Positions 38,493 to 39,908 of a DNA stretch of 64,000 nucleotides are shown piece after piece. The notes below the pieces were generated by a model. That model was not told the DNA's origin and did not search any database. It saw only the letters and a list, made by a program, of their open reading frames with translations. The DNA lies in sequence record MF158044; one strand, 5' to 3'. A program made the translations under genes and the position numbers. How positions within the stretch are numbered: the stretch's first letter is position 1; every line of letters begins with the position of its first letter. The stretch is from Shigella phage Sf18.

Positions 38493-39908
38493 ATGAGCGA
38501 ATTATTTAAACACTCGCATTTACATGCAGGTTTAACTGAAAACGGTGCTGTTAACCACACCTCTTCAATGTCTGCACTGGTAGATTTCTACAAAGCTGCT
38601 GGTTCAAGCAGAACAAACGTAGAAGTTCTTCCAAACTTGTTTTACAAGGCAATGCGAGAAGATATTGATGTAGCAGTTCGAATCCTGTTACATATGCGAG
38701 ATGCACGAGAAGGTATGGGTGAGCGTAAAGCGTTCCGTTATACTCTTACTAAAGCAATCTCTGATAGTGTTCTTGATGAGTTTCAAGTATTACGTGTCAT
38801 GGACAAGATTTCTGATTTAGGTCGTTATGATGACTTCAAAATCTTTGTTGGTACACGTTACGAAACAGATGCTTTCAAGCATTTAGAAGCTGCACTGTTA
38901 GACCCTGCAACATCGGCTCTGGCAGCAAAATGGTTACCACGAGTAAAATCACGACACATGCGTTTTGTTCGTCGTTTCTGTAAGTTTGCAAATCTTTCAG
39001 AGAAGCAGTATCGAGTTCTTCTGTCAGCACTGTCTGATACTGTTGAACAAAAGATTTCAGCAAATGAGTTCGGAGAGATTGATTACAGCAAGCTTCCTTC
39101 ACTGGCTGCTGCACGTTATCAAAAACTCTTCAGTCGTAAAGATGGTGAGCGTTATGCAGCATACATTGCAGCACTGACTAAAGGTGAGACAAAGATTAAT
39201 GCTGGTGCAGTCTACCCTTACGACATTACAAAGTCAGTTGGCTATGGTAATGCAACCGTTGCAAATGAGCAGTGGAAAGCTTTACCAAACTGGATGAAAG
39301 ATGGTGAAAACATCCTGTGCATGGCAGATGTATCTTCATCTATGACTTGGGAGCGACATGGTTCTGTTACAGCGCTAGACATTGGTGTATCTTTAGCCCT
39401 GTACGTTTCAGAACGCAATACAGGTTGCTTTAAAGATGAATTGATGGTTTACTCTAGCCGACCTCACTTCATCACATTGAGTGGTGATTTGCAGACTCGC
39501 TTACGTCAAGTGAAGAGTCATGTAGAGTATGGTTCAACTGACTTACAAGCTGCTTTTGCAAGAATCCTTGAGATTGGTGTTAAAAACAACTTGACTCAGA
39601 AAGAGATGCCTAGTAAGCTTATCATCTTCTCTGATATGCAGTTTAATCAGGTTGATGGAGCAGATGGTCGTACTAACTTTGAAGCAATTCAAGAAAAGTA
39701 CAAGAAAGCTGGATATGAGATGCCACAACTGGTATTCTGGTACTTAGCAAACCGTAATGGTACTTGCGAAGTGTCTGTAAAGGATAACGGTGTAGCAATG
39801 GTATCTGGTTTCTCTCCAGCCACTTTAAAAGCTTTGCTTGGTGGTGAGAAGTTTGACCCTATCAGCGTAATGCTCAAAGCAGTAATGATTGAACGCTACG
39901 ATTGGTAA
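38493..39908 (+). CDS. von Willebrand factor A (vWA) domain protein with helical N-terminal domain
   Basis: MIDAS-like DVSSSM motif and vWA-like beta-alpha pattern in C-terminal half; N-terminal domain unassigned (possibly TROVE-like). Confidence 0.5.
   Translation: MSELFKHSHLHAGLTENGAVNHTSSMSALVDFYKAAGSSRTNVEVLPNLFYKAMREDIDVAVRILLHMRDAREGMGERKAFRYTLTKAISDSVLDEFQVLRVMDKISDLGRYDDFKIFVGTRYETDAFKHLEAALLDPATSALAAKWLPRVKSRHMRFVRRFCKFANLSEKQYRVLLSALSDTVEQKISANEFGEIDYSKLPSLAAARYQKLFSRKDGERYAAYIAALTKGETKINAGAVYPYDITKSVGYGNATVANEQWKALPNWMKDGENILCMADVSSSMTWERHGSVTALDIGVSLALYVSERNTGCFKDELMVYSSRPHFITLSGDLQTRLRQVKSHVEYGSTDLQAAFARILEIGVKNNLTQKEMPSKLIIFSDMQFNQVDGADGRTNFEAIQEKYKKAGYEMPQLVFWYLANRNGTCEVSVKDNGVAMVSGFSPATLKALLGGEKFDPISVMLKAVMIERYDW

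Follow-up and report, generated by a model that had tools for sequence, protein, structure and literature searches.

A predicted Ro60-like protein and a family of box-bearing small RNAs at the tRNA array of Shigella phage Sf18: a probable viral counterpart of the Ro60/Y RNA particle

A gene located immediately before the tRNA array of Shigella phage Sf18 encodes a protein with a helical N-terminal half and a C-terminal vWA domain. The question raised by this locus is whether the protein is a relative of Ro60 and, if so, with which RNA it could act. It was addressed in a stretch of 64,000 nt from the phage (sequence record MF158044), referred to below as the window. Ro60, a protein that binds misfolded RNAs and small structured RNAs (the Y RNAs), constitutes with its Y RNAs a classic and still poorly understood system of RNA surveillance, and DUF2828, the family of the Sf18 protein, is a second very large family with the same predicted fold. 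We propose, with a probability of roughly 0.6, that the Ro60-like protein forms a ribonucleoprotein (RNP) with small phage RNAs bearing a common handle. The assignment of the protein was already known; new here is a conserved family of candidate partner RNAs.

Family and predicted fold of the protein

The window represents a Mooglevirus (Ounavirinae) with 98.8% identity to Shigella phage Sf13 and 80–90% identity to about 224 Felix O1-like genomes. Two features define the locus:

38493–39908, + strand: gene of the Ro60-like protein (DUF2828 at about amino acids 1–270, followed by DUF7788, a vWA domain with a metal ion-dependent adhesion site (MIDAS), at about 274–455)
40075–45003, + strand: tRNA array hosting the four box units described below (25 ARAGORN calls plus tRNA-Tyr at 40635–40715)

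The gene is an ATG-started open reading frame (ORF) of 471 amino acids in the ORF listing of the window. All 25 tRNA genes called by ARAGORN lie on the same strand, and the first one (tRNA-Pro) begins 166 nt past the stop codon, in agreement with a sequence-only reading of this DNA that had placed the gene directly before the array. A further tRNA gene, tRNA-Tyr(GTA), is annotated in Sf13 and weakly matched by Rfam (22.8 bits), with ARAGORN silent; this brings the array to at least 26.

Searching Pfam with the protein revealed DUF7788 (PF25043) at amino acids 275–455 (E 6.4e-44, 150.3 bits, cut-off 27.1) and, N-terminal to it, DUF2828 (PF11443; E 5.2e-27, 95.2 bits, cut-off 29). With both gathering scores passed and the domains in the right N-to-C order, the protein is a member of the DUF2828/DUF7788 family. 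PHROG 850 ("RNA-binding protein") matched over the full length (E 1.8e-178), and the NCBIfam search of the protein gave no match. The same two Pfam models matched all 56 homologues in the family alignment, which share 42–88% identity with the window protein. The peptide CMADVSSSMTW, in which the sequence-only reading had recognised a MIDAS-like motif, corresponds to residues 275–285. The alignment revealed a full site: residues D279, S281, S283, T349 and D381 are invariant in the 56 sequences and constitute a complete MIDAS (DxSxS...T...D).

An AlphaFold2 model generated from the family alignment was confident (predicted local distance difference test score 90.9; predicted template modelling score 0.90). 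Residues ~28–263 of the model are all-helical and residues 274–447 alternate between strand and helix in a Rossmann-like manner; together with the DUF7788 match, this bears out the vWA-like alternation noted earlier for the C-terminal half. A Foldseek comparison with the Protein Data Bank (PDB) returned ten matches at E ≤ 1e-5, all of them full-length Ro60/TROVE structures (Thermus phage phiLo 9kop and 9l5y; Xenopus and human 1yvr, 1yvp, 2i91 and the 9nen series; Deinococcus Rsr 2nvo), followed only by vWA domains. The model therefore has as its nearest structures those with the architecture that had been suggested from the letters, a helical N-terminal half joined to a vWA domain. It is very probable that the protein adopts the predicted overall Ro60 fold, HEAT-like helical repeats followed by a vWA domain in the mutual arrangement found in Ro60. 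The protein is thus Ro60-like by fold and a separate family by sequence.

The sequence link to Ro60 is confined to the vWA domain, and the sequence data leave a distant relationship of the N-terminal domain unproven. The Pfam model vWA_Ro60 (PF25045) was weakly matched by 13 of the 56 family members (best E 4.7e-4). Alignment of the family with human Ro60 by hhalign (E 2.6e-4) placed amino acids 275–455 on Ro60 364–528, with VDVSGSM aligned to VDVSASM; the target was a single sequence, which was checked against PDB entry 9nen (1223.7 bits). Searches of PDB chain sequences with the protein and with the family profile revealed nothing significant, the profile reaching Ro60 only at E of about 1 and in the vWA part. 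Among the profile families that had been thought worth searching, the uncharacterised ones (DUF2828, DUF7788, PHROG 850) were matched and TROVE was not.

The family is widespread. Among clusters at 50% identity its profile matched 8942 with a threshold of E ≤ 1e-3 and 6923 with 1e-10, and tblastn detected the gene in 709 deposited phage genomes, so the ORF is not a chance reading frame. The phages include Felix O1-like phages, P100-like Listeria phages, KVP40-like vibriophages and phages of Staphylococcus, Enterococcus, Bacillus, Campylobacter and Aeromonas. Ninety-five Mycobacterium phage records carry the gene, cluster L included; their proteins are 34% identical to the window protein over their full length, and those inspected (e.g., Crossroads) are labelled "RNA-binding protein" or "Ro-like RNA binding protein". 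When one genome per prokaryotic species was searched, 24 DUF2828 loci were recovered, nearly all on contigs of metagenome-assembled genomes, and we suspect that many of them are phage-derived. DUF2828 presumably occurs in eukaryotes as well. The RefSeq orthologue of the Sf18 protein is named "RNA-binding protein" with the note "contains DUF2828". The protein annotation itself is already in databases, and the existing labels name no partner RNA.

Small RNAs with a common handle

The first kilobase of the Sf18 tRNA array contains four paralogous units with three elements in common, namely a covarying terminal stem, an unpaired UACAGCAA box and a CUG at the 3' end:

40243–40317, + strand: box unit 1, short, between tRNA-Glu and tRNA-Met
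40406–40477, + strand: box unit 2, short, between tRNA-Met and tRNA-Asn, with the common fold
40886–40967, + strand: box unit 3, short, fold z-score -1.9
40975–41106, + strand: box unit 4, long, terminal stem and box around four hairpins, 1067 nt downstream of the gene

Four copies of the pattern CAGAAGRCCNNNTACAGCAA are present in the window (0.05 expected), always on the + strand between 40246 and 40997, and each copy has GGTCTGGT 60–120 nt further on. A common fold was found for all four units: an outer stem of 4–5 bp, an AGA bulge, a 7-bp inner stem, an unpaired UUACAGCAA and a variable interior. The outer stems differ in sequence (UGAC/GUCA, UUAC/GUAA, GGAGC/GUUCC), and the differences between copies of the inner stem are compensatory (AGGCCAA/UUGGUCU, AGGCCGU/ACGGUCU, etc.). 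In unit 1, the outer UGAC/GUCA stem, the AGA bulge, the inner AGGCCAA/UUGGUCU stem and the UUACAGCAA box enclose an A/U-rich hairpin, and the unit ends in the 3' CUG. The block 40239–41253 is conserved in the Ounavirinae, where at least 80% of it is covered by 209 records.

Unit 4 differs from the short units in its body. The minimum-free-energy fold contains an anticodon-like arm, a T arm (GAAGG-UUCGAUU-CCUUC), a capped acceptor-like hairpin (ACACGU/GCGUGU) and a D-like arm, which together form a circularly permuted tRNA-like structure placed on the terminal stem. The Rfam tRNA model gave 28.8 bits on its anticodon, variable and T part, compared with a gathering score of 29. In an alignment of orthologues and four distant analogues, with the structure taken from the window sequence, the five helices were 87% paired compared with 41–51% in slid controls, and 19 of 28 pairs showed changes on both sides. 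The loop of the hairpin at 41016–41032, CUGGUAA, is the anticodon loop of tRNA-Thr(GGU), and the same loop is found in Mycobacterium phage Crossroads (L002 6536–6552); this hints at mimicry of one particular tRNA.

The units were compared with 80 DUF2828 loci on viral contigs, 75 of which encode proteins only 38–46% identical to the window protein, and with annotated loci from four phages, one each of Vibrio, Listeria, Campylobacter and Mycobacterium. The 8-mer TACAGCAA, counted over 970 kb of DUF2828 loci, was found 92 times on the gene strand versus 19 times on the opposite strand. On the gene strand it mostly adjoined the gene as part of the arrangement (A)AG-stem-(N)-UACAGCAA ... stem'-CUG, and about 30 distinct stem sequences were observed with perfect pairing in all. 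Sixteen short units from 11 uncultivated phages, whose 7-bp terminal stem was 98.2% paired versus 31–44% when slid, were used to train a covariance model, R1, with the window units not included. When 980 kb was searched on both strands, R1 gave 81 matches at E ≤ 1, 80 on the gene strand and a single one (E 0.73) on the opposite strand (P 3e-23). At E ≤ 0.01, 52 matches were obtained in 40 of the 81 sources searched. The non-training loci yielded 35 matches at this threshold, in 29 loci; 30 of the 35 lay less than 1 kb from the gene (19% expected, P 4e-17), and by locus the count was 25 of 29 (P 1e-14). The independent set of 24 genome-contig loci gave 12 matches at E < 0.01 in nine loci, all on the gene strand. 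On the tRNA arrays of three control phages (T4-like Sf23, a T5-like phage and rV5), which were chosen as lacking the gene and are not among the matches listed by tblastn, R1 found nothing better than E 0.62.

In Sf18 itself, R1 recovered unit 3 with 37.8 bits (E 3.4e-5) and unit 2 with 36.5 bits (E 7e-5), both in a 2-Mb search, and unit 1 with 23.8 bits (E 5e-4 locally, 0.061 in the 2-Mb search); in unit 4 only the 5' handle was matched (16.9 bits). A scan of positions 37500–46000 with filters off detected the three short units and the unit 4 handle and nothing more.

Matches at E ≤ 0.01 include Listeria Pecentumvirus and Campylobacter Fletchervirus, and a weaker one was obtained in Mycobacterium phage Crossroads (25.6 bits, E 0.024). 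In the Listeria phage the space just upstream of the gene is taken up by three units, whose box variants UAACAGCAA and ACACAGCAA reduce the invariant core to ACAGCAA. The Campylobacter phage has two units between tRNA-Met and the gene. In Crossroads two short units and a single tRNA-like unit lie downstream of the gene, ahead of a terminator; the tRNA-like unit has the design of unit 4 and lies 100 nt past the gene. In one uncultivated clade the order is gene, short unit, unit of ~240 nt, terminator. These ~240-nt long forms carry the same handle, GGAUCG-N-UACAGCAA ... CGAUCC, around an interior that is conserved but not tRNA-like; they were located in six loci:

L054, 7471–7720
L059, 7858–8100
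L061, 7459–7692
L065, 4621–4864
L068, 7463–7706
L100, 6077–6324

Between two and four units are present per locus; over the loci, 19 units lie upstream and 33 downstream of the gene. tRNA genes lie within 6 kb of the gene in 35 of 84 loci, all 347 of them on the gene strand, and within 1 kb in 21 of 79 loci outside the Ounavirinae; the RNA element is found next to the gene also where no tRNA is near. The family was found neither in Rfam 15, no family of which reaches its threshold on the units, nor in the searched literature. It provides annotators with a model for small RNAs that now pass as unexplained spacers of phage tRNA arrays, suggests a reason for the frequent location of the gene within or beside such arrays, and points to tRNA/RNA homeostasis or counter-defence.

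A putative ribonucleoprotein and competing explanations

A conserved handle, a variable cargo, several copies, a common strand and proximity to a gene with a Ro fold make an RNP the best-supported reading of this locus. Bacterial Y RNAs were themselves found through their location next to Ro60, within 4 kb and on the same strand, and are tRNA mimics (PMC4201824). The handle would consist of a terminal stem of 6–8 bp with an invariant closing G-C, a single-stranded (U)ACAGCAA box just 3' of the 5' strand and a 3' CUG. The cargo would vary between an A/U-rich hairpin, a permuted tRNA-like body and, in other phages, a structured domain of ~200 nt; Sf18 would produce three RNAs of ~70–80 nt and one of ~130 nt with the tRNA-like body. 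tRNA-processing nucleases may release the units from the array transcript. By analogy with Ro60 and Y RNA, the protein would then dock on the handle through the stem, the ACAGCAA box and the CUG; direct binding of the box RNAs is likely. The cargo may tether or mimic another factor, for which enzymes that recognise tRNA, or an exoribonuclease of the host, are the most plausible candidates. That the family is accompanied by its own RNAs with a defined and mutable recognition element makes the RNP directly testable.

During infection such a particle could serve in tRNA/RNA quality control or shield phage RNAs and tRNAs from host nucleases, which would fit the recurrent placement at tRNA arrays and the RtcB found near the gene of a Listeria phage. 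The Ro60 of a Thermus phage binds Y-like Yrl RNAs encoded by the phage and, together with them, binds and dampens host PNPase (PMC12135203), and the Salmonella rsr-yrlBA-rtcBA operon is reported to respond to tRNA damage (PMC7790460). By analogy with these systems, a function in surveillance or counter-defence is possible, and we put it forward tentatively.

In Listeria phage LMLPA3, where the gene follows a tRNA array, an RtcB-type RNA ligase is encoded 1.3 kb downstream of the Ro-like gene (L046 6800–8011), and an HD phosphohydrolase and a "tRNA amidotransferase" also lie less than 4 kb downstream. This neighbourhood is reminiscent of the bacterial rsr-yrlBA-rtcBA operon. RtcB as a general neighbour was rejected: it was seen near the gene in a Listeria phage and is not general across the loci.

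Several results weigh against the proposed RNP. Pfam TROVE (PF05731) was not matched at E ≤ 1 by the window protein nor at E ≤ 10 by the 56 homologues, and in the hhalign comparison with one Ro60 sequence the N-terminal domain remained unaligned, only the vWA domain being covered. The earlier, speculative assignment of the N-terminal half to TROVE accordingly stands as a predicted Ro60 fold and falls as a Pfam match, and given this lack of TROVE sequence similarity the ring is a prediction. The observation on which the sequence-only reading was built was nevertheless confirmed in every respect, and the reading as a whole is supported. On the RNA side, the CGAA/GNCGAA (GNCGAAN0-1G) motif of Y RNAs is missing from the handle, where the (U)ACAGCAA box is found instead, and Rfam YrlA (RF02553, gathering score 69 bits) had no match on 40230–41260 at E ≤ 10, unit 4 included. 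The 40 sources with an R1 match at E ≤ 0.01 are only about half of the 81. The count of both-sided changes in the terminal stem of the 16 short units (six of seven pairs) is partly circular because these units were chosen by complementarity; the independent evidence is the cross-validation with R1. Experimental work on RNA binding by any DUF2828 protein was not found in the searched literature. Finally, in some phages the units adjoin the Shine-Dalgarno sequence of the gene and end 8–20 nt before its start codon, an arrangement that suits a cis-regulatory element no less than a partner RNA and leads to the main rival.

According to this rival, the box and stem elements are cis-acting sites, such as autoregulatory translational operators or signals for the stabilisation or processing of mRNA, and not partner RNAs acting in trans. 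The protein would still be RNA-binding and Ro-like, and a stable RNP with a separate small RNA would not be formed. The units before the start codon, some of which are only ~40 nt long, are:

L056, 1761–1799
L057, 2856–2894
L047, 3892–3977
L105, 2050–2127

Three of these (L056, L057 and L047) are mini-units of ~40 nt that end by the Shine-Dalgarno sequence at the distance given above, and the start-codon-adjacent units may be an autoregulatory operator. Elsewhere units are located 20–40 nt past the stop codon and before the terminator, which implies co-transcription with the gene. The situation in Sf18 speaks against cis action: the units begin 335 nt past the stop codon and reach to about 1200 nt, beyond two tRNA genes and two promoter-like sites, and each is flanked by tRNA genes. 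The promoter-like sites of the locus, all of them pattern matches only from a consensus scan, are:

38425–38453, + strand: sigma-70-like promoter TTGACA-17-TAGAGT before the Ro-like gene (10/12)
39927–39955, + strand: sigma-70-like promoter in the gap between gene and array (10/12)
40017–40046, + strand: sigma-70-like promoter in the same gap (11/12, extended -10 TG)

Furthermore, the multiplicity of the units, their presence on both sides of the gene and their elaborate cargo, including covarying tRNA-like bodies that an operator would not need, argue for RNAs acting in trans. We consider exclusive cis action unlikely; a cis role and a role as partner RNAs are compatible with each other.

Less probable still is the explanation that the protein is a vWA/MIDAS module for protein interaction, such as a cochaperone or an assembly factor, with a helical domain only superficially similar to Ro60, and that the RNA elements are unrelated features of the array, either processing spacers or degenerate tRNAs. 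Many vWA proteins do contact proteins through their MIDAS, TROVE is undetected by sequence searches, and ClpP and DnaJ are neighbours in some lineages. A protein neighbour common across lineages was not found in the 80 loci, where ClpP, DnaJ and RNase HII each occur in at most 20; a conserved protein partner was rejected as a candidate, the neighbours (these three and homing endonucleases) being lineage-specific.

An origin of the repeated units as selfish elements or as relics, i.e., decayed permuted tRNA genes or miniature mobile elements linked to the gene by module ancestry only, is highly improbable: the long form is clearly tRNA-derived (28.8 bits with Rfam tRNA), pseudo-tRNAs are known to accumulate in tRNA arrays and other tRNA-like remnants exist in the Sf18 array (~42056–42137), but the handle is kept across phages of Proteobacteria, Firmicutes, Actinobacteria and Campylobacterota whose proteins are 30–45% identical and whose surroundings differ, the stem sequence varies freely with pairing retained, and the units keep their strand and their placement with respect to the gene, none of which is expected of relics.

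Other features of the locus were recorded beside the proposed RNP. The interval 39909–40074 was rejected as a partner RNA, its appearance being that of two promoters and a hairpin. The latter, a 12-bp hairpin AAAGGGTATT...AATACCCTTT at 39919–39950 (+ strand), lies directly past the stop codon and extends into the first of the two promoter-like sites before the array; it is a possible terminator/promoter overlap between gene and array. Directly before the Ro-like gene lies an ORF of 123 amino acids (38043–38414, + strand; phrog_4114, function unknown), very basic and rich in glycine at its N-terminus (KRTNKGQFKKGQSGNPSGRPKGSRNK), which is annotated at the equivalent position in Sf13 and also beneath the match in other Ounavirinae records. 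Within the array, about 235 nt at 43403–43646 (+ strand), with an ORF of 75 amino acids (43421–43648), are inserted between tRNA-Arg(ACG) and tRNA-Gln(TTG), which are spaced by 9 nt in Sf13; the inserted DNA is possibly a small mobile element or a moron. The spacers at ~42056–42137 and 41504–41745 (+ strand) contain tRNA-like remnants without an ARAGORN call, one of them with acceptor-like ends GGGACG.../...CGUCCCA and a T arm GGGTTCGAATCCT. Another stretch, adjoining tRNA-Ile, gave sub-threshold matches to tmRNA_permuted (34.7 bits, gathering score 47) and alpha_tmRNA, and the spacers 41889–42149 and 42240–42492 are likewise without explanation. In two uncultivated phages group I introns were detected a few kilobases from the Ro-like gene (L064 11708–11934, Rfam 71.5 bits; L105 8800–9042, 59 bits).

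Comparison with Dictyostelium Class I RNAs, phiRo60 and Ro60/Y RNA

The only non-tRNA Rfam family that recurred on the units was Dicty_Class_I (RF01414), always below its gathering score of 41.5 bits (unit 2, 22.7; unit 1, 20.9; unit 4, 17.6; the best related unit, in L105, 29.1). Class I RNAs share the layout of the phage units: a 5' G, a covarying terminal stem of ~6 bp, a closing G-C, a variable interior and a 3' CUG(U), with the box CCUUACAGCAA, equal to (CC)UUACAGCAA, straight after the 5' strand; they are ~60 nt long and encoded by clustered multicopy genes (PMC7919456). The pattern given for D. discoideum is GTTGRC-CTTACAGCAA...GTCAAC-TG (PMC5054030). Unlike the phage units, Class I RNAs are transcribed by a eukaryotic RNA polymerase from a promoter element of their own, and the protein known to bind them directly, Rnp1A, is of the RRM type and not Ro-like. 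They have been reported as unique to Dictyostelia, the genomes named as searched being without phages. The likeness is a resemblance of design rather than proof of homology. If it is real, it would offer a first mechanistic handle on Class I RNAs. It is doubtful, though worth stating, that DUF2828 protein and ACAGCAA-box RNA represent an ancient, widespread RNP distinct from Ro60/Y RNA, with the Class I RNAs as its eukaryotic members; in that case these abundant, developmentally regulated RNAs would work with a eukaryotic DUF2828 protein, and the phage would be a tractable model for both.

A phage precedent is phiRo60 of Thermus phage phiLo (PDB 9l5y, 9kop). In contrast to the Sf18 protein, with which it shares 14–16% sequence identity, it belongs to the canonical TROVE proteins, and CGAA motifs are present in its RNAs Yrl1 and Yrl2.

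With metazoan Ro60 and bacterial Rsr and their Y RNAs, the Sf18 system shares the predicted fold and domain order, a ring of helical repeats closed by a MIDAS vWA domain, and the window protein has the DxSxS...T...D residues of the Ro60 vWA domain. Common to both are also small RNAs within a few kilobases on the same strand, a handle formed by an end-paired terminal stem, and a variable module; often there is one permuted tRNA-like RNA per locus, and a short and a long form are often paired as in YrlB and YrlA (PMC4201824). Unit 4 has the architecture of YrlA, an end-paired stem, a T arm, a capped acceptor-like hairpin and a D arm, at less than 4 kb and on the same strand. The tRNA-like modules beside two other DUF2828 genes gave partial, sub-threshold matches to Rfam YrlA (L064, 39.2 bits; L105, 32.9 bits). 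The sole YrlA match in the window, at 43939–44062 (21.6 bits), was discarded as a tandem tRNA-His/Phe, a known type of false positive. The GGCGAAG at the junction of variable loop and T stem in unit 4 was also rejected as a CGAA motif, the orthologues having GGAGAAG. The protein differs from Ro60 in its family, DUF2828/DUF7788 without Pfam TROVE, and in its length of 471 amino acids compared with ~500–540. In the bacterial Rsr-YrlA/YrlB system (RYPER), Rsr-YrlA tethers PNPase; a corresponding partner of the DUF2828 protein can be suggested by analogy only. Taken together, the comparison describes a putative RNP of the Ro/Y kind in which both the protein family and the RNA handle are different ones, probably the viral counterpart of the Ro60/Y RNA particle.

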